NCBI GenBank assembly: GCA_013239625.1
Contig: MU053588.1
Span: 3,934,799 to 3,998,798 of the forward strand
Length of the DNA: 64,000 nt
Source of the DNA: Lama guanicoe
Lineage: Eukaryota
Direction: 5' to 3'
The translations under genes were made by a program, and so were the position numbers. The notes below the pieces were generated by a model that had not been told where the DNA came from, ran no database searches, and was given only the letters and a program-made list of their open reading frames with translations. Shown piece after piece: positions 1 through 48,434 of this stretch (position 1 is its first letter; every line of letters begins with the position of its first letter).

Positions 1-1171
1 TCTGAGTACCTTATATAAGTGAAATCATACAATATTTGATATTTTGTGTCTGGCTTATTTCATTTAGCATAATATTTTCAGGGTTTCCATGTGGTAGCAT
101 GTATTAAAATTGTACTCCTTTTTAAAGCTGAATAATATTTCATAATATGTGTAAACTACATTTTGTTTATGCACTCATCTATTGTGTACATGTGTTTTTT
201 TCCACCACCTTTGGCTACTGTAATGTTGCTATGAACACTGGTGTACAAATATCCATTTAAATTCTTGCCTTCAGTTCTTTTGGGTATATACCTTAAAGTG
301 GGATTGTTGGATTACAGGGTAATTCTATGTCAGAATTTTCGAGGAACCACCATATTGTTTTCCACAGCAGCTGCACCGTTTTACATTCCTACCAGCAATG
401 CACAAGAGTTCTAATTTCTCCACATCCTCACCAACACTTGTCATTATCTTTTTTCTTTTATAATAGTAGCCATCATAATGCATGTGAAGTGGTATCTAAT
501 TGTGGTTTTGATTTGCATTTCCCCAATAATGAATGATATTGATCATCTTTTCATGTTCTTTTTGGCCATTTGTATATTTTCATGGAAGAAATATCTATTC
601 ATTTGCTCACTTAAGAATGGGGTTGTTTGTTTTCTATTGTTGAGTTGTAGAAATTCTTTATATATTTTGGATATTAATTTCCTGTCAGATAAATAATTTG
701 AAAATCTTTTTCCCTTTCTGAGGGTTGCCTTTTTACTACATTTATATTTACCTTTGATGCACAAAAGTATTTAATTTTGATGAAGTCCAATTGATTTATT
801 TTTTCTGTGCTTGCAGTATCATGTCCAAGAAATTGTTGCCAAATCCAGTGTCATGAAGATTCCCCTATATGTTTTATTTTAAGAGTTTTATAGTATTAAC
901 TCTTACTTTTAAATCTTTGATCCATTTTGAGTTAATTTTTGATTATGGTGTGAGGTACGTGTCCAAATTCATTCTTCTGCATGTAGGTGTCTCGTTTTCC
1001 CAGCACCATTTGTTGAAGAGACTGTTCTTTCCCCCATTGAATGGTCTTAGCCCCCTTGTCAAAATCAATTGACGGTCCATGTGTGAGTTTTTATGGACTC
1101 TGAATTCTGTTCCATTGATCTGTATGCCTGTCTTTATGTCAGCAACACAGTTTTTTATTATGATACCTTTG
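1..1171 (-). mobile_element. L1 fragment (ORF2 C-terminal region and 3' UTR), interrupted by an ERV
   Basis: Minus-strand translations match L1 ORF2 (SDRKLISKIYKEFLQLN, KNSLFNKWCWEN, CRRMNLDTYLTP). Confidence 0.9.
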
Positions 1172-1586
1172 TGTAGGCCCCCGCCTGAAGGCTCTAGAGA
1201 ATAAGCTGTGGGCTGAACTGATAAACAAGCTGTGAGGAATGTCATCATGTATCCAGTATAGATGGCTGGATAGTCAATGACGGGTAAGATCCTCAGAGGA
1301 GGACAACCTAAGACAGGCACAGCCGGCTGGATGAGAGATGGCCTACTTAATGAAGTTTCGTGACGAACTTTAAAACAGTCTGTCCTTGATCATGTAACAT
1401 CCTGTGCTTACTGCAGGAACTTGGGGACCTAAATAGATTAAGATTATTAACATTGTCATAACTTAGATGATATGTGAGGCATCGTGCATGTCCTATATAA
1501 ACCTTTTTCCAAGAGTCAATAAACAGAGAACTGCTTCGCTTCTCTCCACATGGTGTTCGTGTGTACATGATATCGCGCCACCGACA
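1172..1586 (+). mobile_element. 5' LTR of a class II (betaretrovirus-like) ERV
   Basis: TGTAGG...CCGACA imperfect terminal inverted repeat; TATATAA 1494-1500; AATAAA 1518-1523; followed after 2 nt by a primer-binding site. Confidence 0.85.
1264..1324 (+). promoter_or_regulatory. CTE-like RNA export element (single NXF1/TAP-binding loop) in LTR U3
   Basis: CAATGACGGGTAAGA (1275-1289) and AACCTAAGACAGG (1305-1317) are the two MPMV/SRV CTE core strands. They are joined by a TCCTC-AGAG-GAGGA hairpin and closed by GGCTG/CAGCC. Confidence 0.8.
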
Positions 1587-1588
1587 TT

Positions 1589-1606
1589 TGGTGACCCCGA
1601 CGTGAT
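1589..1606 (+). promoter_or_regulatory. Retroviral primer-binding site, tRNA-Trp
   Basis: TGGTGACCCCGACGTGAT is the reverse complement of the 3' 18 nt of vertebrate tRNA-Trp (ATCACGTCGGGGTCACCA). Confidence 0.85.
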
Positions 1607-1688: not shown

Positions 1689-2930
1689 ATGGGACAGCAG
1701 CTGACAGTACAGCAGAGGATTTATTTCCGTATTCGGCAGCAATTGTTAAAGGCTATTTCAAAGCAGGGCACCCTCCCAGGGGCCCCTCAAAAACAAATAT
1801 AGGAAATCACTGTCAGCCAAAGTCCCATCTCACCATTTCTGACCTCATCACATCTTCCCCCGGGAGTGCAAGTTTAGATCTAATGACTATTGATAATGAG
1901 TTGATACATGACAGTAATAAAACCTACTTAATCTCTACTGGAGTTCTGGGTATTTTGGATTGCTATTAGGGAGATTATCTGTGGGCTTAAACGGGTTAAC
2001 AGTTTTACCTTGTGTTATTGATAATGATTATACTGGAAAAATTAAAATTATGGTTCATGCCTCTTCTTATTACATTATTCCTAAGCAATCTCGAATTGCT
2101 CAAATTATTTTGATACCTTATTTACCTGCTCAAAAATTTGCTGATAATAACAGAGGAGATAAGGGCTTTGGACATGCAGGACAGAAAGCTTTTTGGACAC
2201 ATCCATTAACCGATAAAGAGACCTGTTTTAACAGTTTCAATACAAGGAAAGCAATTTACAGGGTTATTAGACACAGGAGTGGACAAAACTATTATTTCCA
2301 GTTTTAATTGGCCTTCTGATTGGCAAAAACACAAATCTGATGTTACTATTAAGGAGTTAATGGAATGATGGCACCTAAAATAAGTTCTCACCCACTAAAG
2401 GTCCAAGGGCCTAAAAATAAAACGGCCTTTGTAACTGCTTTTATATTACCAATACCCTGTACTCTATGCGGCAGGGACTTTCTTGCTCAGTGAAACCTGA
2501 CCTTAAAGATTGATCCTTTTTAATAGGGGCTGCTGCTACTATCCCAAATATTATTCCCATTGCTCTAACATGGACCCAACAGCAACCTGTTTGGGTGGAG
2601 CAATGGCCCCTTCCTAAAGAAAAATTACAAACATTACAAAAATTGGTTGCAAAACAACTAAAGTTGGGTCATTTAAAACATCTACTAGTCCTTAAAACAC
2701 ACCTGTTTTTGTAATCAAAAAAGAAATGGAGGTTATTGCAAGATTTGCATGCAAAAAATGCTGTAATGCAACCTATGGGACCCTTACAGAAGGGGCTGCC
2801 CAATCCTTCACTTATTCCTGACTCTTGGCCCTTACTTGTTATTAATATAAAGGATTGTTTTTCTCATTACCTTTGCACAAAGCTAATAAGAAAAATTTGC
2901 CTTTACTGTTCCTACCTGTAACAATCAGGA
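1689..2930 (+). pseudogene. Degenerate ERV internal region: truncated gag, dUTPase-protease, N-terminal reverse transcriptase
   Basis: MGQQLTVQQRIY gag start at 1689; dUTPase motifs (VIDNDYTGKIKIM, RIAQIILIPY, RGDKGFG); protease LLDTGVD at about 2264-2284; RT motifs ([47 protein letters not shown]). Multiple stops and frameshifts. Confidence 0.9.
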
Positions 2931-4199
2931 GTTTTCATACTACTTCATGAAGTCCTGCTAGACTCTATTTTTGGTGCCTACCTGCCTCAGCCCCCTTTCA
3001 TAGCTCTTAGTTGCAATACACATGAGTATCTTTTTATTGATCTGCCTTTCTAAATTAACAGGCAGATCTTTGTAGGCAGATACATTTCAGATCTGTCTGT
3101 ATGTCCCCTTAGAAAGGCTATCTTAGGCTAGAAGAAGGTCCTTGGTCCCAGCATCCTGATAGGAAATGAAATCACAGAGACAGAGTGTCAGAGGTTGTGA
3201 TTAGAACTTATGCAAATTTAGTAGATGGTAGGCTGGTGGAGGAAGGAGTTGAAATATTTGTTTCTGGGCTGAGTGGGGTAAGGGTCAATCACATGTCTAC
3301 AGGGGTTAATTTGGGCATGGGAGTTCACGGGAGTATTTATTCCCAGCCTTAGGACAGAAACCTCCATCCTTACAGTGTGAAGGACATACATCTTATATCT
3401 GGTTCTTTATGTCAGGAATTTACCTCAAAACAGGTCAAGGATGGACATCATAGCCTCAATCCCCAGACTTTTCTGTGGGTCTAGTTTCAGTTCTGCCTTT
3501 TTAAAGAAAAGCTGTAAGCACCCTCTGCAAACTCTGAATGAATCAGAATATGGCATCCGTTTGGCTAGAGTTCTGTCTTCACTCTTGAAAGAAACTAGGA
3601 TTCCCACAGTTGGAGTTAGGAGTCAAGAGTTAATAAGTCCAAGTGTCAGAATGGTATTATTGTAAATTGGTGATTTAGGAGATGGCAAGACAAGACTGTT
3701 CCCTCCTGGATTGTAACCCCCCTTTCTCTACCTGCCTCAAAGCATTGCTCTGTTTCAGTTTCCCAAAGACAGACATGGGGGAACAATCAGTTACTCTAAT
3801 CGTAAAAGCCAAAGATAGCAGGGTTTGATAATTCCACTTACTTCTGCCAATGCCCACTACTTGTGTTTCTCAAGCTTAGGAGCCTTTCTTTCCATAAATC
3901 AACATGGCTGCTCTTCTTCCCTCAGGGATAATCTCAAATAGCATCCCCTAATGCCTTTACTTCTAAAAGTCATGCAACTTTCAAAAATGTCATTTAGCAC
4001 TTCCCTCATCCTGCCAGAAAAACATGTCCTAGAAGGAAAATATAAGTGCTTCCCTCTTGCAGGTACTTGAGTTTTTGATGAGGTGGGGATGAGTACCTAC
4101 AAGGGAACATTCACGGGAAATCTTTACTCTGCTTTTGATGGAGATGAGATAGGAGGGTTTGATGACTGTTCTTAGTGTACAGCAACCTGGGTGCACTGA

Positions 4200-4989: not shown

Positions 4990-7480
4990 AGTATGACTAA
5001 AGAACTAACTTTTTAATTTTATCTAATTTTAATTAATTTAAATCTAAATTTAAAAACTGAAGCAGCATCAAATAATTTCCCATTATTGACAACATTGGTG
5101 TTTTGCTAAGACTACATTTCACTGTAGTCACTGCTTTGCATAGATATTATTTTTGTACAACAGTGTTCATGTTATATGTATATGTTGTGTCTAGCATTAC
5201 ACAAATACAGCACTGATCTAGTTGATGTCATGAAATTGATGTGTTTATCTGAATATTTTATGAAGACAACATGAGTTCTGCTGATATGAAGGAAATAATA
5301 ATTGGTAACTAAATTAATTATGATTAAATTAGTATTCTAGGTCAAAAAATAAGTATGTACATATTTTTAAACTTTAAAGACAAATGTCCTACTGATGCAG
5401 AATCAAATGGAGGTCAGTGCTGTGGCCAGAACAGTATAAAACAAGAAACTGGAAGTAGATATACTGTGAATTTCATGACGAATGCCAACTACAATTTGCT
5501 GTGACAGAGCAAAACAAAAAAGCTGTTTAATTATGTAAAAAAAAAAAGGTTAAGTTAATAAAGTAGAAAACATTGTGAGACATTTTCAGCAGATACATAG
5601 TAAACTTGATGAGAAATTTCCTCTTGATAAGCAAATAAGAATAAATGAAATTAGTTGCCTGGAAATCAGAATTAAATGTGCAATGAAAAATTTAAATAAA
5701 TTTTAAACAAATAAAATTTAAATACATTTAAAACATAATCCAAGCCTATAACTTTGTCTAGCTATAAAATGGCTTTGGTCTTGCACAAAAGAATAAATCA
5801 AATTTTAGATGGAGATATAGCAAAATAAATGATTAGTTTTAATTGTAGAAATTTTATTATGATTTTATAAGAGACTAAAAATTATATAAAAAGTGAAAAA
5901 GTCTTCAATTACCATCTAACAATTGCTCATAGAATACAAGATCTTTCTAACAATGTAAAAAATCAGCTATCTCAACATTAGAAAAGCTACACGTACTCTT
6001 CTTTAGCTTCAGATGAGTTGTACAGTATAAGATACTGCTCAGTTATTACTCTGGGTACATTTTATCTCAAAAGATTTCCAGATCAAAAAGAAATGTTGTC
6101 CGTTTGCAGCCTACAAAATCAGATTCATAGCATAGATATTTTCAAATTTTTTTATATATGTCAAAAAACAATTTCCACTAGGTATGAAAAAATTCATTTC
6201 TAAAACAATGCTGTAGCTATGTTAGGTTAAAAATGTGGATTCCACAAATGACAAATGCTGGAGAGGCTGTGGAGAAAGGGGAACCCTCCTACACTGCTGG
6301 TGGGAATGCAGTTTGGTGCAGCCATTATGGAAAACAGTGTGGAGATTCCTCAAAAGACTAGGAATAGACTTACCATATGACCCAGGAATCCCACTCCTGG
6401 GCTTGTACCCAGAAGGAAACCTACTTCAGGATGACACCTGCACCCCAATGTTCATAGCAGCACTATTTACAATAGCCAAAACATGGAAACAACCTAAATG
6501 TCCATCAACAGGTGACTGGATAAAGAAGATGTGGTATATTTATACAATGGAATACTACTCAGCCATAAAAACCGACAACATAATGCCATTTGCAGCAACA
6601 TGGATGATCAGGGAAGGGATAGACTGGGATTTCAAAATTGTAGAATAGATAAACAAGATTACACTGTATAGCACAGGGAAATATACACAAAATGTTATGA
6701 TAAATCACAGAAGAAAAAAATGTGACAATGAGTGTGTATATGTCCATGAATGAGTGAAAAATTGTGCTGAACACTGGAATTTGACACAACACTGTAAAAT
6801 GATTATGAATCAATAAAAAATGTAAAAAAAAATAAATAAATTGGTGATTAAATTTTGTAACTGTTCGTAGGACCATTCAGGTTTTCTGTTTCTTCTATAC
6901 TTGCTTTTGACAATTATTATTTTTCTAGATGTTTATCTATTTCAATTAAATTCTCAAACTGTTGGCCAAAAAAAAAAAATGTGGATTCCTTAGAATTTTA
7001 AGGCAAAAGTCTAATGTCTCCCTAATTGCTTTGCTCCATAGTGTGAAAAGTATCATGGTTTAGTATATACACATAGATATTATGAATCATTATTACTTTA
7101 TGGAACTGTTGAAACAGGAAACAATGAATTAATTTATCTTATGTTCTTTGCCAACGTGCACTGGTTGAATGATTGAGTTTTACAAAGATTTACCATACTT
7201 TGAACTTTGAGACTTAAAAAAAATTTGCCAAATATTTCATAATCAAAACCCCCAAAATGACAATGTGATGTATGTTTTCTCACATACCACACTGCATATA
7301 AACAAACAAAATCTGAAACTCCAAGAAAAGGAAAACTTTTTTGTGGCCTAGATAAAAAAGTAGGAACATTTGTTGAAACTGAAATTTTTCATACATTAAT
7401 AAAAATAATTTTACGTATTTTCTAGATGAATCAATATAGAAAATATTTTCACTGTAATCAAAAGCATTGTGAAAATATTG
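4990..7480 (+). mobile_element. hAT-Charlie (Charlie1-like) DNA transposon remnant with decayed transposase, interrupted by an L1
   Basis: MER3-like AT-rich end at about 4990-5060. Decayed transposase motifs: FHDE.QLQFAVTEQNKKAV and KVENIVRHFQQIH (about 5480-5600), YSSLASDE (about 5994-6017, catalytic-Asp region), FFANVHWL (about 7143-7168). Confidence 0.7.
6244..6974 (+). mobile_element. 5'-truncated young L1 with 3' transduction
   Basis: ORF2 C-terminus ([19 protein letters not shown]...MEYYSAIK), 3' UTR and A-rich tail at about 6812-6840, an extra segment and a second A tail. 15-bp TSD AAAAATGTGGATTCC at 6229-6243 and 6975-6989. Confidence 0.9.
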
Positions 7481-7489
7481 CTTGCAATG

Positions 7490-8200
7490 AAGAAATAGGA
7501 AATCTTAGTGAAGAAATAGGAAATCTTAGTTAAGAAATAGAAACTATAACAAAGTACTAAATAAAAAGTCTAGAATTGAAAAGTGCAATATCTCAAAATT
7601 TGATAAAACATTTGATAAAAAAGCTTAACAGCAGAATTGAGAGGACAGAAAAAAATCAGTGAATCTGAAGACACAGCAATAGAAATTATCCAACCTGAAA
7701 AACTGAAAAAAAAATGTTGATAAATAACAGAGCCAATGACCTATGAGACAGTATCAAAAGATTTAACATATGACTAGCTACTTGGAATCCCAGAAGGAGA
7801 AGTAAGGGCAGAAAAAAAATCTGACACATTACACACAGAGGAAAAATAGTTCAAATGACTTCTTATAACCTATGGAGACCAGAAGTCAGTGATATAATAT
7901 CTTTAAATATATCTATATCTGTATCTATATATGTATAACAAACCTCAGAATTCCATAGCAAGAAAAAACATCCTTTAAGAACAAAGGCAATCCAGAAAAA
8001 AAAACTATGAAAATTCATTAGCAGACATGTACTCCAAGAAATGATAAATTAAATTCCTCAAGCTGAAGGGAAATGATACCAGATGGAAATTTAGATCATG
8101 TGAAAGGAATGAAGAGCATGTGAAAAAGTAAATATATGGGTAAATATTTAAGATGAGGGGGTTTTTTGGTCTTAATTTTTAAAAATACATAAAGCTGTTT
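7490..8200 (+). mobile_element. Old L1 fragment (ORF1 region)
   Basis: A-rich sequence with L1 ORF1-like phrases (ggaatcccagaaggaga, ggagaccagaagtcagtg, aaacctcagaattccatag). Confidence 0.65.
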
Positions 8201-9589: not shown

Positions 9590-11037
9590 TCATTCCATTA
9601 AGAGTTTCTCACCTGTGTGAAGTCTTTGATGTTGAGTAAGTTGATAGCAACGAGGAAAGGCCTTCCCGCATTCCTTACATTTGTGTGATTTCACACCAGT
9701 ATGAATTCTCTGATGTTGAGAAAGACCTGAGATAGAACGAAAGGCCTTCCTACATTCTTTACATACATATGGTTTCAAACCAGTATGGATTGTCTGATGA
9801 TAAATTAGTTGAGAATTAAGCCTAAAGGTTTTTCCACATTCCTTACATTCATAAGGTTTCTCCCCGGCATGGATTGACTGATGTGTTTTAAGGTCTCCTA
9901 CACGACTGAAGGCTTTCCCACATTGTTTACATTCATACGGTTTCAAATCACTATGAATTATCTGATGTTGAAGAAGGTATGAATGGAGCTTAAACGTCTT
10001 CCCACATTCTTTGCATTCATGTGGCTTCTCACCAGTATGAATTCTCTGATGTTGTGTAAGTTGAGATCCTCTACAGAAGGCCTTCCCACATTCCTTACAG
10101 TCATAGAATTTCTCACTACTATGAATTCTCTTATGTTTAATTAGGCTTGAGCCCCTACTAAAGGCCTTTCCGCATTCCTTACATTCATGAGGCTTCTCAC
10201 CAGTATGACTTCTCTGATGTTCAATAAGCAGATAGCTGCGAACAAACGCCTTTCCACATTGTTTACATTTATATGGTTTCTCACCAGAATGAATTTTCTT
10301 ATGTTGACAGAGACTTGAACGATGACCAAAGGACTTTCCACATTCCTTACAGATATAGGGTTTCACACCATGATGAATTTTCTGATGTAGACACATATGT
10401 CGATACAACCTAAAAGTTTCCCCACATTCGTTACATTCATAGGGTTTCAAGCCAATATGAATTTTCTGATGTTCAGTAAGGTGAGAATGACGTCTGAAGG
10501 CCTTCCCACATTGCTTACATTCATAAGGTTTCACACCAGTGTGAATTATCTGATGTTGAATAAGCTGTGAATAAAACCTAAAGGCCTTCTCACATCCATT
10601 ACATTCATAGGGCTTCGAATCAGTGTGACTTTTTCTATGCCTAATAAAATGCTGGAGAACTATAAAAGCCTTTCCACATTCCTTACATTCATAGGATCTC
10701 ACACCACTGTGGTCTCTCAGATGTTCAGTAAGGTGTGAATATTTCCTAAAGCCCTTCCTACATTCCTTACATACATATGACTTCTCTCTAGTGTGAATTT
10801 TCTGCTGTAGGGGAAGGGATGTATGTTTTCTGAATATCATTTGACTAAAGTATCCTACTTTAGGTGCCTGTTGTCTCTCAAATTCAGTTCTGATCCATGA
10901 GTCATTCCTGAAAATAAACCCCATAAGGTTGAAGGTTGAAGGTTTACTTCTTTTCATTGGCTCACAATGGTATGAATTTACTTCATAGCTGCTTTTTTCT
11001 GAAGATAATCCTTTGCTCTCAGTTGTGAAGTCAATGT
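9590..11037 (-). CDS. ZNF404: ZNF404 zinc-finger exon (14 C2H2 fingers), last coding exon
   Basis: Acceptor ttttctttcag before 11037, phase 1 (D-I-D-F-T-T-E-S); open to TGA at 9590-9592. Fingers [43 protein letters not shown] and the KLLM C-terminus match ZNF404 as recalled. Spliced CDS is 9+127+1448 = 1584 nt (527 aa). Confidence 0.93.
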
Positions 11038-12639
11038 CTGAAAGAAAATGAGAAAACATTAAACAAATGCTATTTTCCTATACTGGGGGTCAGAAAAGGC
11101 CTTCCATAGTAAGAACAGTGATAAATTGACAAGTATATCCATTAGAAATGAAAGGGTCGTCAAATCCTAAAATACAGTGATGAAGTTGTTTAAAGGCAAG
11201 AAGAGCTCAGAAAATTATGAAAGTTCACACAAAACTATAAAGTTTGTGAGGAGGCAAAGAGAAAAAGTCAGCAGTTCTCATATTTAGTGTGGATCAGAAT
11301 TACCAAGGGAATTTATTACACATACTACCCTTCCGATACCCACTGAGACTAAGCAAATCAGAATGTATGAGTGGGTCCTGTTCGTCTGCATTTCTAATAT
11401 TCTCTACCAGATGGCTCTCTGTGATTTTTTTCAATGGTCTGTCTTCACCTTAGAATGAAACCCAAGCACATAACCATGAATAAGAAGACTCTTATCTTAT
11501 TTCTACAAATTTTCATTTCAAGCCCCTGACATCTTTGTTCCCTAAATCCGACAACACTGCATCTTTTCAGCTACCAGAACATACCACAACCTTTCCCACT
11601 GCCTGGGGCTTCATGCAAGACGCTCTGCCTTTCAGGAATCCTCTTAGATGGCTTCTCTCCATTACTGTCTCCAGGTGTTGCAAGTTAGAAACCACTTCCT
11701 CAGAAAGGCTGGCTCTGCTAACTCTGTAAATTCATATCCTTTATTCTACCTCCAATAGCTAAGTCTGTGTCTTCATGGTACTCTTCTCTATTACATATTT
11801 ATTGTCTCATTTGTTTTTCTACTTATTTTCTTACTCTAAAACTCACTTATGGACTTGAAATTTCTTTCAACTACCACTGAAAAACAAGTTCTACCACAAG
11901 GTAAGTATTAAATAATTATCTGTAGAATAAAATACTGAATTAAAAAAGTAATGGGTGAAAATCAAGGTAAGGATGAAAATCAAGGTCACTGGAGAAGGCA
12001 GCTGAGTAAAATAAACATCTAGTTTGTGAAAATTATGCAACAGTTACCAGCTATCTCTCTTTGACTCTAGTCTCCCACCTCTTATTATTGTAAAATGTGC
12101 TTTCCTCTCTCATTTACCTTATAGATGAGAAAAGTGCACATCCAAACCAACTCAGTCAAAAACATAAATGGAAAAGTTGATACCTGACTGTTCTCCAGCT
12201 GCCTGTCCCCTTAAAACTATACACATCTTTACCATTGTTGTTTAATCCTTCTGTGCATGGCCATGATTGGTTTTGTTTAAGTAATCAGATGTTATACTAC
12301 CTTCATCAGGATACTTTCAATATTATCCATCCACCCTACAGATGCTCAATGTTTTGTCCCCAAGGTCTTTCCCCAGTTCTCCCTTTTATTCCTTTATAGC
12401 CAAGGCCAATTGTTTTTGAATTTTACAGAAATGTGTATCCATAATTTATCAGGAGTTGTATCAGTTGATATATTTTTAAAGACTTACAAAAGTCTAAGCA
12501 AATGAACTTGGGGATGTTGAGGGAAAAACAGAGTAACTGAATGGGAGAAACTCGAGTGGCTAGGACTCTGCAACAAGGGATATGCTGAATGTAGGCTGAA
12601 GACTGGTAATCCAGATGGTGGAGCAGCCTGAGGAAATCT

Positions 12640-13960
12640 GATGTGCTTAGTGGATCAAGTATGAACTGAAGACAAGTGGAATTCTTCTTTGAATAAAGTA
12701 TGATATGTTTAAAATGTCAAAATAATACAAGCAATATTCTCTGAACCAATGAGAAATGAGTAACAATCTCAAAAAGCCAAAACATTTTCTATTTATAAAT
12801 GAAAAGCTCTCAACAACTGCTGTTAGGTCAATGAGAAAATACAAACTGAAACCACAGAACTTCTTGAAAACAATGATGATGAAAACACCACACTTCAGAA
12901 TCTATGGATTTCAACCACAGTGCAGCAAACTCAGAGACTAAAGACTAATGTCTAATGAAAAATAAAAGAATTAAAATGAATAAATTAAGCATTCCATTTA
13001 AAAATTAGGAAAAGAAAACAGAGAAAGAATGATAAATTACACTGAAAGAAGACAGAAAAGGGAAATTAATACAAGAAAAGCAAAATGTAAATAAAATAGT
13101 ATAATTAACATACAAACCACTAGCCTTATTCAAGGAGGCTAGTGGTTTGGATTTTATAGGAGGAAAATCCAAACATAACGGCAACAGAGAAATAGTCATC
13201 AATCAAGAAAGAGAAAATTTAGGAAAAAAATCATACAACTATGCAAGTAAATTTGAGATGTACATGAAATGATGGCTCTTTCTGAAAATATAATTCATCA
13301 AAACTGAGACCAGCTAAATTTACTGACTTGCTTCTAACAAATAAGAATATAGAAAGGGTAAAATAACTTTACAGTGAAGAAAACTGACAGGAACCACCTT
13401 CAACAAGTTTTTAAGGCTAATACCCCAGTATAAATCATGTTGCTATGTACCCCCAAAATCAGAAGGGTACTTCTCTGGTATTCTTCCCACAAATCTATAA
13501 TCTCAGCTTAATCATAAGAAAGCATCAAACAAACCCAAAATGTGGGGCAATCTACAAAATATCTGACCAGTACTCTTGCAAAGTACCAAGGTTATGAAAT
13601 ACAAGGAAAGACTGAGAAATTGTCACAGATTGGAGGAGACTAAGGTCACGTGTTGACTAAATACAATATAGTATCCTGGATTGGATCCTAGAATAGAAAA
13701 AAAGAATTAGTGCAGAAACTGGTGAAACCTGAATAAAATAGGTAGTTAATAGTATGGTAAAACATTAATTTGATAGGTTTATAGATGTACCATAGTTGTG
13801 TAAGGGACCAGTACATTGGAACTCTCTGTACTGCATTTGTAACTCTTCTATAAATCTAAAATAATTTCAAAATAAAAAGTAAAACAACAACTACAGACTC
13901 CAGAACAGATGAAAAATCTAAACAAACCAATTTCCACAGAAGAAATAGGGGGAAAAATGT
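12640..13960 (+). mobile_element. Old L1 fragments (ORF2 and 3' UTR)
   Basis: Degenerate L1-like A-rich sequence, including a mammalian-wide L1ME/MC-type 3' end at about 13300-13880. Confidence 0.55.
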
Positions 13961-14271
13961 GAATTTATCCCCACCAAAAGGCAATCTCAATGAGCTTCCC
14001 CTGTTGGCCAGGTTTCAGTCTCTATAAATTATTTCCACTAATATGAACTAGGGTGCCTAAAAGAAGCAACTGCAGGATGGATCAGAGGGAAGTAGGAAGG
14101 TAAATGAAGGAGGGAAAATTTAGGTGCTGAATGCAGATGCCCATTTCAACCTAACAAAGCTCAAACTAGTCCTTTGAGACCATGGAGCAAAAACTTAACT
14201 GGTTTCTTGGCACAGAGCATAAAATATAAAGTAGAGAAAAGTGGATATTTCAGATAACAGATTCTACATTA

Positions 14272-14439
<168 letters not shown>

Positions 14440-18599: not shown

Positions 18600-21500
18600 A
18601 TCTAGAGTCTCAATAATATATTATCCACAATGCCAGCATATGATAAAACTTACAAGAAATGAAAAGAAACAAGAAAGAGTTACTGATACTCAAGAGAGAA
18701 AAATCTCAAGAGAAACAATCTCAGAGATGATCCAGATAGTGGAGCTAGTTTACAAGGACTTGAAGATACTATGATTAACGTGCTAAAGAAAACAGAGGAA
18801 AAGACAGGCGAGATGGAATGCAAATGGAGTATATCAATAAAGATTTAGAATCTTTAAAGGGAAAATCACATGAACATTTTATGGTTGTAAAAACATCATA
18901 TCAAAAATTAAAAATGTATTGGATAGATTTAACAGCAGAAAATTCTATTAATTAACATAAAGTCAAATTAACAATAATCAAACAAACAATAAGAGAATTA
19001 TATGAAACAGTCAAAATGTGAAATTGGACACCTAAAAGAAAATAGAACAGAAAATTTATTTGAGGAAATAATGGACAAAACATTCCAAATATCATGAAAT
19101 ACCCTGATACATAAATCAAAAAACTCAGCAAAATACCTAACCAAATGAAATAAAGAAATCCACACCTAGGCACGTCATGGCCAGATTGTTGAAAAACAAA
19201 GTTGAAAATATATCTTAATGTACATTTTTAAATTTTTGTTTTGTTTTGTTTTTACAAATGCTGCAGAAATGCCATTTATTACTTAATCACCATTGGTAGT
19301 TACTAGGTGCACTGAAAACATACAGACATAGCAAATCAATTAGTAGTGAAGTCATTATGAAAACACTTTGTCAAATTACTTCAGTGCCAAATAAATCCAT
19401 AATTTATTTTCTACAAATAGATAGCATGAGCATTTGTAATGATTGTCCATTTATCTTTTTTTCCTTTTTCCCTTTTGAACCCCTTCATCCAAACATAAAT
19501 GTATGTTTGGTAATAGCAGAATAGTTAAAAATCAATGATCTACCTTTGGAAGCTAGGAAAGGAAAAGCAAATTATAGAAAGTAAAACACTAAAAGAAACC
19601 AATGACATAAAAAACTCAAGTACACAACAGAGAAAAATCAATAAAGCCAAAAGCTATTTCATTGAAGAGATACAATTCATAAATCTCTAGCTGTACTGAT
19701 CAAGAAAAAATCGCCAATATCAGGAATATAAAAGGAGATATCACTACATATATTACAGGCATTAAATTGATAACAGAATTTTATGAACAACTGTAGGACA
19801 ATAAACTTGAAAATGTAGGTGAAATTTTAAAATTTCTGGAAAACACAATTTAATGAAACTGATCTAAGAAGTAGAAAATCTGAATATTATTGTATTTATT
19901 AAAGAAGTTAAATCTATTTTAAGGACCTTCCCACAAAATGTCAGGCCCAGAGGCTTCAGTGGCAAATTCTCCAAACATTAATTAAAAATTGAAAATGCCA
20001 ATCAAATTCAGTCTCTTCTAGACAAACCAAAAAATGGACCATATCATGAGGCCAGCATAACTGTGACATCAAAACTTGACAAGGATATTACAAGAAAGGA
20101 AAATTATGGTGTATCTTTCTCATGAACAAAGGTATATGCATATTAAACAAAATCTTAGCAAGGAGAAACCAGTGATACATCTGACCAAGACATTTATTAG
20201 AGAAATTCAAAAGTCACTTAATTTTCAGAAAGCAGTCAATGTAACCTTCCAATTTTAAATAATAAAGGAGAAATATCCGTTCATTAGATGTAGAAAAACC
20301 ATTTGATAATATGAACATCAGTTTGTGATAAAAATTCTCAGCAAACTAGGAACAGAAGAGAACTTCTTTAATCTGATAAAGGGGATCTTACAGAATAAAA
20401 CTGAGAGGTGACAATATGGACCGCTGTCTTTCTGAGTTCAGGAATAAGGCAAGGTTGTCCACTTTTATCACTTTTGTTCAACTTTGTGCAGAAGACCTAT
20501 CCGATACCGTAAGAGAAAAAAGTGAAATGAATGGTATGAAGATTGGAAAGAAAGAAGTAAATCCATCTTTATTTGCAGATAACATCATTTTGTACATAGA
20601 ATACTTCAGTTCTACAAACAACTGGAATTAACATGAATTTATTAGCAAACTTGTGAAATAAAAGGTCACAGTATAAAACACAATTGTATGAAAGCAAAGC
20701 TACTGAAAAATGAAATTTTAAAGATCCCAACAGTTTATAAAAAGCATGAAAAATGTAAAACACTTTGGAATAAATCTAACAAAAGAGGTGCAAGACTTTT
20801 AGGCTGAAAGCAAACATTAAGGAAAGAAATTAAAGAAAAATTAAATAAATGGAAACATTTCATGTTCATGAATTGGAAGAATCACTTTTAAGATTATCAG
20901 TTCTCTCTAAATTGACCTATTGATTCAATGCATCTCCAAACAATGTCAGCAGATTTTTTTAGAACATTAACAAATTCATTTTAAAATTATATGGAAATTC
21001 TAAGAATCCAGAAAAGTCAGGACAATTTTGAAGAACAAAGTTGTCAAGTGCACATTACCAGATATCAAGACATAATGTAAAACTATTGTAATTAAAACAG
21101 GAGGACTGACACTGGATTGATAAACAGCCCAACAGAATAGAGTCCAGAAAGAGACCTGCATATATATAGTCATATTTTTCAACAATAAAAGTCTGACTGC
21201 AATTTAGAGAAGAAAGGATAGTCTTTTCAGAAAAAAAAATGGTGCCTGAACAATTGCCTACCTGCATGAAGAAAATGATTATGACCCTGATCCCACCACA
21301 TACACAGATATAAATTCAAGATAGATCACAGGCGTAAACGTGAAAACTGAAACAATAAAGTTTCTGCAAGAAGAAACAGGATAATACCTTCATGATCTTA
21401 GGGTAGGCAAAATTTTCCTTTTTTTAAAATTTTTATTTCCACTTACTTTAGACTTAGAGAAAAGTTGCAAGAATATTACAGAGAGTCCCTGTATGCGCCT

Positions 21501-23210
21501 CAACCTGATGTTAACATCTTACATAGAACAGTGATCAAAAACAGGAAATTCAGTGCCAAATAAATCCATAATTTATTTTCTACAAATAGATAGCATGAGC
21601 ATTTGTAATGATTGTCCATTTATCTTTTTTTCCTTTTTCCCTTTTGAACCCCTTCATCCAAACATAAATGTATGTTTGGTAATAGCAGAATAGTTAAAAA
21701 TCAATGATCTACCTTTGGAAGCTAGGAAAGGAAAAGCAAATTATAGAAAGTAAAACACTAAAAGAAACCAATGACATAAAAAACTCAAGTACACAGCAGA
21801 GAAAAATCAATAAAGCCAAAAGCTATTTCATTGAAGAGATACAATTAATAAATCTCTAGCTGTACTGATCAAGAAAAAATCGCCAATATCAGGAATATAA
21901 AAGGAGATATCACTACATATATTACAGGCATTAAATTGATAACAGAATTTTATGAACAACTGTAGGACAATAAACTTGAAAATGTAGGTGAAATTTTAAA
22001 ATTTCTGGAAAACACAATTTAATGAAACTGATCTAAGAAGTAGAAAATCTGAATATTATTGTATTTATTAAAGAAGTTAAATCTATTTTAAGGACCTTCC
22101 CACAAAATGTCAGGCCCAGAGGCTTCAGTGGCAAATTCTCCAAACATTAATTAAAAATTGAAAATGCCAATCAAATTCAGTCTCTTCTAGACAAACCAAA
22201 AAATGGACCATATCATGAGGCCAGCATAACTGTGACATCAAAACTTGACAAGGATATTACAAGAAAGGAAAATTATGGTGTATCTTTCTCATGAACAAAG
22301 GTATATGCATATTAAACAAAATCTTAGCAAGGAGAAACCAGTGATACATCTGACCAAGACATTTATTAGAGAAATTCAAAAGTCACTTAATTTTCAGAAA
22401 GCAGTCAATGTAACCTTCCAATTTTAAATAATAAAGGAGAAATATCCGTTCATTAGATGTAGAAAAACCATTTGATAATATGAACATCAGTTTGTGATAA
22501 AAATTCTCAGCAAACTAGGAACAGAAGAGAACTTCTTTAATCTGATAAAGGGGATCTTACAGAATAAAACTGAGAGGTGACAATATGGACCGCTGTCTTT
22601 CTGAGTTCAGGAATAAGGCAAGGTTGTCCACTTTTATCACTTTTGTTCAACTTTGTGCAGAAGACCTATCCGATACCGTAAGAGAAAAAAGTGAAATGAA
22701 TGGTATGAAGATTGGAAAGAAAGAAGTAAATCCATCTTTATTTGCAGATAACATCATTTTGTACATAGAATACTTCAGTTCTACAAACAACTGGAATTAA
22801 CATGAATTTATTAGCAAACTTGTGAAATAAAAGGTCACAGTATAAAACACAATTGTATGAAAGCAAAGCTACTGAAAAATGAAATTTATAAAACAGGAAC
22901 TGACACTGGATTGATAAACAGCCCAACAGAATAGAGTCCAGAAAGAGACCTGCATATATATAGTCATATTTTTCAACAATAAAAGTCTGACTGCAATTTA
23001 GAGAAGAAAGGATAGTCTTTTCAGAAAAAAAATGGTGCCTGAACAATTGCCTACCTGCATGAAGAAAATGATTATGACCCTGATCCCACCACATACACAG
23101 ATATAAATTCAAGATAGATCACAGGCGTAAACGTGAAAACTGAAACAATAAAGTTTCTGCAAGAAGAAACAGGATAATACCTTCATGATCTTAGGGTAGG
23201 CAAAATTTTC
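18600..23210 (+). mobile_element. Old L1 (ORF1/ORF2 remnants), partly tandem-duplicated
   Basis: ORF2 RT motif remnant SLFADNIILYIE occurs twice (ORFs at 20416 and 22585). Confidence 0.8.
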
Positions 23211-23343
23211 CTTTTTTTAAAATTTTTATTTCCACTTACTTTAGACTTAGAGAAAAGTTGCAAGAATATTACAGAGAGTCCCTGTATGCGCCTCAACCTG
23301 ATGTTAACATCTTACATAGAACAGTGATCAAAAACAGGAAATT
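19382..23343 (+). repeat. Near-identical tandem duplication, 2169-bp unit; copy 2 has an internal deletion of about 375 bp
   Basis: Copy 1 spans 19382-21550 and copy 2 spans 21551-23343. Identical ORFs at 20076/22245 and 20416/22585 are offset by 2169; the offset drops to about 1794 after 22888. Confidence 0.95.
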
Positions 23344-27157: not shown

Positions 27158-27258
27158 ATAAGAAGAGAAGGTATAGCTCAGTGGTAGAGCACATGCTTAG
27201 CATGCACAAGGTCCTGGGTTCAATCCCTAGTACCTTCATTTAAAAAAATTTTTTTAAA
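27158..27258 (+). mobile_element. tRNA-derived SINE (camelid Vic-1-like)
   Basis: ggtatagctcagtggtagagc A box, gggttcaatccc B box, A-rich tail; 18-bp TSD taaagatttgatcataaa at 27140-27157 and 27259-27276. Confidence 0.85.
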
Positions 27259-43752: not shown

Positions 43753-43965
<213 letters not shown>

Positions 43966-44438
43966 TGAGATAGAGAGATGGCATTTTTCTAATCTTTCTC
44001 CCCTGGCCAAAATGTGTCTTGTAAATTAACTGTACATTGACAGCACGACTGCTATACATTTTTGGCTTTTCAAATTGGGCTCATCTCCAGTTAGTGGGTC
44101 CTGACACTCATTAGGGAATTGAAATACAATAGGGTAGAGAATATCAGTGGCCTTGGCAGTAACTGCTTGCTGCAGTAAAAACTGCCCATTACCAAGAATA
44201 GCATGAGAAACTGTGAAAAGGGTGCAACGAAAACAGATAATTTTCTTCCAGTAATTTATATTTATGTCTGCCTGTCTTGGGTTTTTGCATAAGATGCATT
44301 TCTTCCCGTGGGTCTTACTTAAAAGTTGGGAAAACACTGGTTTGGGTGTCCCAAAGATGATGCAGTGAGAACCACAAGTTTTAAAAATTTTGGCCTCTAA
44401 TGCATTAATTCAAAATGTTTGTCCTTGCCTTGTCACAG

Positions 44439-44534
44439 GGCACCAATGCTTCATACCAGATGTAATATCCCAGTTGGAGAGAGAAGAAAAGCTTTGGATG
44501 TTACGGACAGCAGCCCAGAGCCGTTGCTCCTCAG
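44439..44534 (+). CDS. ZNF45: ZNF45 KRAB-B exon
   Basis: 96 nt, tcacag|...|gtgaga; encodes GHQCFIPDVISQLEREEKLWMLRTAAQSRCSSG. Confidence 0.9.
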
Positions 44535-46586
44535 GTGAGAACCATGTGACTCTGAGTCTGTCCTGTTTTGTGTCACCTCCACAGCCATGGCTCTGGTCCA
44601 CATCAGTGCCTGGACTGTGGACCACCGCAGCAGTCTTCGTATTGCTCTCTCTCCTGATCTGCTCATTTATAATCGATTCTCCACTCAGAGTGTTTCTTCT
44701 AAATTCAGATCTTGTCATGTCTCTGCTCAAAACCACTCGGAGTTTCTCACCTGATTTACAGCACAGTTCAAGTACTTAACGGGAGTCAGGATGTCCCATG
44801 TGTCCACCAGTTCCGTAGTCTGCTTTCAGATACAACATTTCACCTGAGGCTCTAAATACCGACTCCCCCTTGAAAAAGGAGAAAGTTTACACACACAGGA
44901 AGACAGTACAAAAATTTCAGAAGCACTCTATCCGTGGCCACTTTTACGCTTTATGCTTTTTTTAAAAAATTTTTTTATTGATTCACAGTGCTAGTTTCAG
45001 ATGTATAGCAAAGTGATTCAGTTATACATGTACATACATATATATTTTTTCTTTCCATATTCTTTTCCATTATACGGTATTATAAGAAATTGAACATAGT
45101 TCCCTGTGCTGTGCAGCAGGGCCTTGTTTAAAGTGATTCTTGCCATGATTTTGTGATCATCATGATGTTCTCATCCCCTTAGTTTAGCCCTGCATCTAGG
45201 GAAGCCTTTCAGCTTCCCAGCAAGAGTGCTGTTTCCAGTTCCTTTCCTGTTGTGGGTAACTCGCTGGAAAAAGCTCTTTTATTTTTCTAACATGGCTCAG
45301 ACTCTCACGAAGAAGTCAGACTGGGATTCACTTATCCTTTCAACGTGTATTTGTTGAACGCCGTGTCAGACAGTGCCCTGGGAGTGGTGACAAAGATACA
45401 GAATGCTTGTCCTCATGGATATTGCATTCAAGGGGGAGAAGACATAAAAGGAAAAAGATCAAGGACATTGGCAGTGTGTCGGACGGGAGCATGTGCTGGG
45501 TCAAAACAAAGCAGGGTAAGGCGAGATTGCCTGGACTGTGGAATGGATAGGGAGAATTTACTCTTATGATATTGGATGGTAAAAGCGGCCTCCCTGATAA
45601 GGTGCTATTTGAAGAGAGAGCTGAGAAGAAGTAAGTAGCCAGCTATATGGCTAATTGGTGGAACAGAGTTCCAAGGACAACATAACTCTTCCTGTCCTGT
45701 AATGACTTTAAGTATCTGTTCTATGCTCTGTTTATTTCCTCCTGACAGGTTCTTGCTCTGTGGTAAAAGATTACCTTCTGTGACATTGTGCCTACACCAG
45801 AAATTGGCACATTGTAACTGACTGTACTTCAATTTGAAAAAAAAATTTTTTTAATTAAAAAAAAAAGATTACCTTCTAATTTTTCACTTATTTTCTCCCC
45901 TGGAGGTTGTTATTATTACCACGAGGCTTTAGAATAATGTATGTCATTGACAGTAAACCTCTTCCCCCATTTGTCTTCCTGAAGGATATTTCTTAGCAAG
46001 AGATGGTGGGATCACTCTCTGCTTATACTGTGAACTTTAGGCACTTAGGTATAAGGTATTTTCTCCCAAACATGTATCTTGCCAGCCTATCCAATATCTC
46101 CCACCATTGGAATAAATTTCCAATAAAATAAAGCAAGGATTTTTCAACATTGCCTGGGGACATCTTCTGATAATCTGTCTGTAAGGGCCTTGCTAGAGAT
46201 TTGGAGCATTTTGATTGGACGTGCATGCAATAGGCAGAATTATGTGAAAGCTGTATATCAGATACCAACTGCAGCAAAAAAGAGATAAGGCTTAACATAA
46301 GGTGCAGCTTCATCTTTGTAAACATTGCCTAGGAGGTATTTTTCTTGCTCTGTAGCCACCAGATTTCTAGCTTGTATCTCACTTATGAAACTTACTGTGA
46401 TTCAAAATGGACCCCATTAGTGTGTAGTGAACCCCCAAGAGATTTATGGAGGTGTGCAAATCAGAGAACATGATACATGATGTTAAAAAATGGAAATTTT
46501 TGATGGTTCAGTAAAGCCTGGGGGTGTAGGCCTAAGTTTATAACATTGACATCTCTGGACGAGGCTTTCACATGCCCCATCTCTAA

Positions 46587-48434
<1,848 letters not shown>

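Follow-up and report, generated by a model that had tools for sequence, protein, structure and literature searches.

The Locus and Its Truncated Provirus

The window, by which we mean the whole 64-kb stretch of Lama guanicoe DNA analysed here, carries near its start the remains of a betaretrovirus-like (class II) endogenous retrovirus (ERV), an assignment that follows the order of dUTPase before protease and the beta-type RT. L1-like DNA lies upstream of its 5′ long terminal repeat (LTR), the element breaks off near 2940, and neither a second LTR nor a 3′ LTR was found in the 64-kb window. The U3 region of the LTR contains a hairpin that resembles one loop of MPMV's constitutive transport element (CTE). 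The proviral features are the following:

1172..1586 (+), LTR of 415 bp, TGTAGG...CCGACA, the 5′ LTR of the truncated provirus (sequence and contig edges)
1494..1500 (+), TATA box (sequence)
1518..1523 (+), AATAAA polyadenylation signal (sequence)
1589..1606 (+), primer binding site, 18/18 letters as in the RSV model (Rfam RSV_PBS alignment, with a weak overall score of 19.1 bits)
1689..1765 (+), likely gag start, shortened by a large internal deletion (open reading frame 1620-1802)
1921..2365 (+), dUTPase and protease pieces, frameshifted (PF00692, E 2.6e-14; PF00077, E 5.3e-14)
2514..2918 (+), broken RT N-terminal pieces (2715-2918 matches the PDB 7SR6 polymerase, E 1e-17; lentiviral RTs, E 0.015 or worse)

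Seventeen contigs of sequencing run X1 depart from the stretch at 1172 into unrelated flanks (agreement 0.44), and the 5′ edge of the LTR is therefore fixed there; several contigs end at 1586-1587. Transcription would start about 25-30 nt downstream of the TATA box, which places the hairpin in U3, about 200 nt upstream of the start. The initial annotation had put the hairpin inside the LTR and its U3, and this position holds: the hairpin begins 92 nt inside the 1172 edge and lies upstream of the TATA box at 1494. A location upstream of the true LTR was considered and rejected, as the flanks break at 1172 and no polypurine tract follows the hairpin. The junction between the L1-like DNA and the LTR was spanned by no contig in four runs, which has no bearing on fixation.

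The gag start had no Pfam match, and we assume that it resembles a beta-type matrix start; PDB 7SR6 is taken by us to be the HERV-K enzyme. The RSV-type primer site presumably corresponds to tRNA-Trp, and in this the element differs from betaretroviruses, which have a lysine primer site, despite its dUTPase and beta-type RT. A lysine tRNA primer site is stated for all betaretroviruses in PMC3621094 (apart from PMC3531059, the papers cited in this article are represented by excerpts, and statements resting on them hold for those excerpts). PMC8605555 counts camelid ERV2 elements, and term searches in its excerpts gave nothing on primer sites or solo LTRs. A protein search with the element returned nothing at near length and, at longer length, one Logan protein (P0001), which had no match among viral contigs. 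P0001 is 92% identical to 1634-2365 over 70% of the query and likewise has its gag start joined to dUTPase; the deleted form thus occurs either in a further copy or at the same locus in a related species.

Elsewhere, the window contains a cluster of KRAB zinc-finger genes (9590-14412, minus strand; 43759-48434, plus strand; 63404, plus strand) and near-identical direct repeats at 19380-23324 (99-100%, spacing 1793 and 2169), which arose either through very recent duplication or as an artefact of assembly. A tRNA-Ala-like short SINE with an A-tail at 27167-27238 is, we assume, of the camelid Vic-1 type and is the main feature of the sequence that points to a camelid host. Vic-1 has been described as a simple camel SINE (PMC3531059).

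Homology of the Hairpin to One Loop of the MPMV CTE

The hairpin and the U3 unit that holds it comprise the following features:

1247..1349 (+), U3 unit of about 100 nt holding the hairpin, present once here and head to tail in some relatives (joints in 4/4 runs)
1264..1324 (+), one-loop CTE-type hairpin, 61 bases (arm letters as in the outer arms of the L001 CTE; 5/5 apical and 4/4 upper pairs; fold)
1276..1281 (+), AAUGAC on the 5′ side of the internal loop (identical in 5/5 aligned elements)
1282..1289 (+), 5′ splice-site-like word beside the loop (sequence; the same feature is in the NXF1 and MPMV CTEs according to the Discussion of PMC4338338)
1310..1315 (+), AAGACA on the 3′ side of the internal loop, the motif to which NXF1 binds in PMC4330393 (identical in 5/5 aligned elements)

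A pattern built from both core strands (24 letters, gap of 8-38) matched the 64-kb window once, at 1275-1316, and matched none of 100 shuffled windows. Among viral contigs, it matched two records: L001, of MPMV size (8,557 nt, match at 7413-7532), and its close relative L002 (8,126 nt), which we take to be an SRV. The L001 match falls within the coordinates given for the MPMV CTE, 7388-7549 (PMC6478720). When anchored on the core strands without gaps, the 5′ arm of the window hairpin agreed with L001 at 23 of 26 letters and the 3′ arm at 20 of 21; the corresponding values for L002 were 21/26 and 17/21, or 38/47 in all. These matches therefore identify the window element as the MPMV CTE's outer loop with a short hairpin for a cap. 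The hairpin letters were found at 1264..1324, as annotated initially, and the homology to the MPMV CTE strands that had been claimed for them was borne out by the alignment, in which 43/47 arm letters are as in L001 and both loop strands are kept.

The folding energy alone is modest and would leave room for a chance likeness to the CTE. Such a likeness is nevertheless vanishingly improbable: the number of matches expected in the window is 1.4e-8, the likeness extends past the search pattern into both arms, and 596 billion prokaryote bases gave one match to the same pattern against 0.13 expected, a chance match that forms 0/5 apical pairs. The shuffled windows, the prokaryote scan and the arm comparison together rule chance out. 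A looser pattern found 94 loci in viral contigs; the 80 listed were mostly long environmental contigs and were taken as chance. Rfam reported nothing over the hairpin at E values up to 10. Judged by its letters, the hairpin is genuinely homologous to one loop of the CTE.

RNA Fold and Pairing

The closed hairpin described initially was reproduced by folding, at -17.4 kcal/mol, with 5 of 200 shuffles as good on the chosen ends. The opposite strand behaved alike (6/200 shuffles), and with 10 extra flanking bases on each side 24 of 200 shuffles folded as well. The best predicted fold shuts the loop in a shifted register, taking three letters of the AAGACA strand, and the MPMV-type loop is predicted to be 0.7 kcal/mol costlier. 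That loop, AAGACA opposite AAUGAC between paired stems, is present, with a closing stem that is predicted to be weak here.

The pairing was examined in the comparators as well. Four of the five pairs of the apical helix are changed on both sides relative to L001, yet all five pair. Fourteen CTE-like loci were collected; in the 10 with both ends readable, apical pairing is 5/5 in nine and 4/5 in one, while in L003, L009, L011 and L012, where the second half is cut or decayed, it is 2/5. In a five-row alignment, two rows of which are MPMV repeats whose working pairs run across repeats, 87.5% of cells are paired for the named structure (4/500 shuffles as high) and eight cells are changed on both sides (1/500 shuffles as high).

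Pair probabilities for this copy depended on the context folded. Those of the upper helix were 0.88-0.96 for the hairpin alone and 0.67-0.97 in windows of 70-150 nt, falling to 0.34-0.64 in folds of 200-370 nt; the apical helix gave 0.81-0.99 in the 70-150 nt windows. The lower pairs that close the loop reached 0.17 alone and 0.04-0.45 in context, compared with 0.99-1.00 in L008 and L013. This weakness of the closing stem looks private to this copy, because its letter at position 1274, within the stem, differs from nearly all aligned relatives.

The LTR Family and Its Tandem Units

The stretch or a part of it was contained in 20 of 24 listed sequencing runs, the best 14 of which carry six organism labels. 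Four runs (X1, X5, X12 and X15) were aligned on 1145-1800 and gave 823, 466, 640 and 91 contigs, in keeping with the multi-copy LTR family that had been supposed. In the four runs, 40-46% of the contigs are 90-95% alike to the window, and related copies have diverged by 5-10% from the window copy. The LTR was 20-205 times as deep as the internal sequence in the four runs; depth is not copy number, and the excess is as expected of many solo LTRs.

Some related contigs carry the U3 unit in tandem. In all four runs, joints jump back by 97-103 nt, from about 1345-1349 to 1247-1249, although the contigs that span a joint are few (2, 1, 1 and 2 in the respective runs) and a complete LTR context was not seen for them. 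X15 record 16 has two full units head to tail, X12 record 9 has one and two thirds, and X1 record 2 and X5 record 23 each have one unit running on into downstream U3. The number of units therefore varies. The description as a minimal one-loop CTE fits this copy, with one strand pair in the window, but does not extend to the family, whose contigs include tandems in 4/4 runs.

Preferential conservation of the hairpin within the family was hinted at. The variants compared were the best 40 of 148, of which 25 lie in the LTR; one of these 25 falls in 1264-1324 against 3.7 expected, which points in the direction foreseen but at P 0.10 is a hint only. None falls in 1275-1324, where 3.0 were expected (P 0.04, for an interval picked after looking).

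The depth over the hairpin, relative to the median of 15 other LTR bins, was 4-fold in X1, 2-fold in X5, 35-fold in X12 and 96-fold in X15; in X5, another LTR bin was deeper than the hairpin. The peaks of X12 and X15 lie at 1277-1320, and one host lineage may have amplified the unit to a much greater extent. No satellite of about 100 nt appears among the alpaca families of Table 2 in the excerpted PMC13751797 (motifs of 2.3-8.6 kb). At 1244-1247, many relatives are longer than the window copy by about 30-40 letters, which look like the unit's tail. In X15, three contigs diverge from the stretch ahead of 1260 and three past 1329, in each case into unrelated sequence, which leaves a match of about 70 nt outside the LTR that is possibly the host NXF1 intron-10 element.

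Comparison with Known Export Elements

The MPMV/SRV CTE shares with the window hairpin both loop strands, the upper helix, the bulges and the outer stem. It differs in being a two-fold symmetric rod with two loops, whereas the window hairpin has one loop and a short cap, and in lying outside the LTR, in the interval from env to the polypurine tract, whereas the window hairpin is inside U3. Its two loops come from degenerate direct repeats; the window has one strand pair, and the family has a unit of about 100 nt in variable number.

The cellular CTE of NXF1 intron 10 (94-96 nt; PMC4338338 and PMC6478720) has in common with the window hairpin one loop, a short apical hairpin and a donor-like word. 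The loop strands are spaced by 34 nt in the window and by 36 in the human NXF1 intron-10 CTE (figure legend). The cellular element resides in an NXF gene, in contrast to the window hairpin, which is in a retroviral LTR flanked by L1-like DNA and retroviral genes. The divergent NXF1-like gene L013 has the same one-loop architecture, with 34/47 arm letters. Leucine-rich repeat exons were seen in L013 at 1515-2097 (Pfam E 5e-6 and 9e-7; PDB NXF1 E 6e-6), and its well-folding one-loop CTE, at 3001-3045, lies about 900 nt past the last of these exons seen. The L013 protein is far from human NXF1, and the cellular CTE may therefore reach beyond the vertebrates listed in the excerpts of PMC4338338. 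Another well-folding one-loop CTE, at 570-616 (minus strand) of the 2.4-kb contig L008, is in a non-LTR context; tblastx against L013 found no NXF1 exon in that contig.

Two-loop CTEs of ERVs that we take, from their LTR starts, to be rodent-type made up 10 of 12 metagenome hits. These elements have their endogenous class II context and loop strands in common with the window hairpin; unlike it, those on contigs of sufficient reach carry two loops and are located upstream of both the polypurine tract and the LTR. The RcRE of HERV-K resembles the window hairpin in being located in U3, in being active from the 3′ LTR and in being spread by more than 900 solo LTRs, but differs from a CTE-type hairpin in needing a viral protein and CRM1 (PMC6916052). 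The MER11 CTE of SERV-K is likewise LTR-derived sequence that works as a CTE; unlike the window hairpin, it is without homology to the MPMV/NXF1-binding loops and lies upstream of the LTR (PMC11379458).

Proposed Role in Viral RNA Export

We consider it likely that the hairpin, a one-loop homolog of the MPMV/NXF1-type CTE in the U3 of a beta-like ERV, brought NXF1:NXT1 onto viral RNA by way of the 3′ LTR copy during replication of the virus. The hairpin unit would bind NXF1:NXT1. Viral RNA contains U3 at its 3′ end and nowhere else, so the unit would sit directly ahead of the poly(A) signal in each transcript of the virus. The HERV-K RcRE provides a precedent for an export element in U3 that acts only from the 3′ LTR (PMC6916052). 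Each symmetric unit of the CTE with AAGACA takes one NXF1:NXT1 (PMC4330393), half a CTE binds NXF1 (PMC4330393 and PMC4330390), and a dimer was modelled on two-loop RNA (PMC4330390). The present copy is most likely inert: the provirus whose 5′ LTR it forms is deleted, and the closing stem of its hairpin is weakened. Since it is a 5′ LTR copy, its U3 would lie outside its own transcript.

One loop would be expected to give weak export. In reporters with extra NXF1/NXT1, one NXF1 loop gave 3-fold and two loops gave 33-fold over background (PMC6478720; PMC4338338 is alike), and this difference is the reason why the tandem units matter. Viral lineages likely raised export by duplicating the unit in tandem, and would in this way have reached the two-loop state of MPMV by a second route. 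How much is gained from CTE multimers varies with context (PMC1363727).

The same weakness of single loops in reporters would suit an auxiliary U3 loop, with export carried mainly by another element, either a Rev-like protein or a further half-CTE located upstream of the 3′ LTR. Betaretroviruses can have more than one export route (PMC3621094), and the 3′ part of the provirus is missing, so that the window holds neither a 3′ LTR nor a 3′ untranslated region of the virus. The tandem gain of exactly this unit, which suggests that its number mattered, argues against an auxiliary loop, and we regard this explanation as rather unlikely. It is less probable still that the unit was kept for some other task in U3, as a U1 snRNP or splice-donor site or as enhancer repeats, the tandems being ordinary enhancer duplications and export having been lost early. 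The donor-like word at 1282-1289 is a possible U1 site of the kind discussed in PMC4338338, and direct repeats are generally common in U3; neither an enhancer in DNA nor a donor site, however, would need both loop strands and an apical helix that keeps its pairing with letters of its own. Recruitment of NXF1:NXT1 through the 3′ LTR therefore remains our preferred explanation.

Solo LTRs and Host RNA

The initial annotation further held that every solo LTR of the family would be an export signal for host RNA, which is the weakest part of its interpretation. In this scheme, sense-oriented solo LTRs would act today as NXF1-binding export signals and let intron-retaining host RNAs leave the nucleus. 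The excess of LTR over internal depth in the four runs (20-205-fold, depth not being copy number) is consistent with this, as is the RNA run X15, in which the hairpin is 96 times as deep as the rest of the LTR. The contigs, however, are strandless and may be DNA, the DNA-type run X12 also peaks 35-fold, and repeats of the unit explain the peak. Single loops are weak even with extra NXF1/NXT1, only copies transcribed on the sense strand could act, copies have drifted by 5-10%, and the closing stem here is predicted to be unstable. Within the window, no sense-strand host gene runs over this copy; the nearest gene is a minus-strand KRAB zinc-finger gene whose end is at 9590, about 8 kb from the provirus, and it would read the element antisense. 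A plus-strand gene beginning ahead of the window is conceivable. Present-day export of host RNA by these solo LTRs is accordingly the least probable of the functional readings considered here, and we think it very doubtful.

Origin and Significance

Capture from intron 10 of a host NXF1 gene and transfer from a type D-like virus are both possible origins. The arms are closer to MPMV (43/47) than to L013 (34/47), in a comparison whose NXF1-like reference was L013. PMC4338338 proposed that a retrovirus captured the one-loop NXF1 CTE and then duplicated it; in its excerpts, no homologs of the CTE turned up beyond the NXF genes in its mammalian searches. In betaretroviral ERVs of bats, a search extending as far as the poly(A) signal of the 3′ LTR found TAP-binding motifs within env and behind it (PMC3621094). 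Among the literature matches listed, which covered sources other than subscription journals, Dfam and Repbase, none dealt with camelid CTEs or with a CTE located in an LTR, and the excerpts of PMC7551171, PMC2674570, PMC13568524 and PMC13751797 contain no report of this element.

Taken together, the hairpin is a real CTE homolog in a new place, U3, with a unit number that varies in the family and a putative function in RNA export. More speculatively, the LTR family may be a fossil record of CTE evolution, in which a one-loop NXF1 intron-10 element was taken into U3 and amplified in tandem to differing numbers by lineage, leaving a mammalian genome with numerous loops that bind NXF1, a part of which would still export host RNA. 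We hold this as a possible but unlikely account; if true, it would supply the step that PMC4338338, as excerpted, proposed for MPMV but could not show. The one-unit and tandem-unit versions of the LTR are natural variants for studying how loop number sets the strength of export, and a genome with many dispersed loops would allow one to ask whether hosts purge or use sense-oriented intronic export signals.
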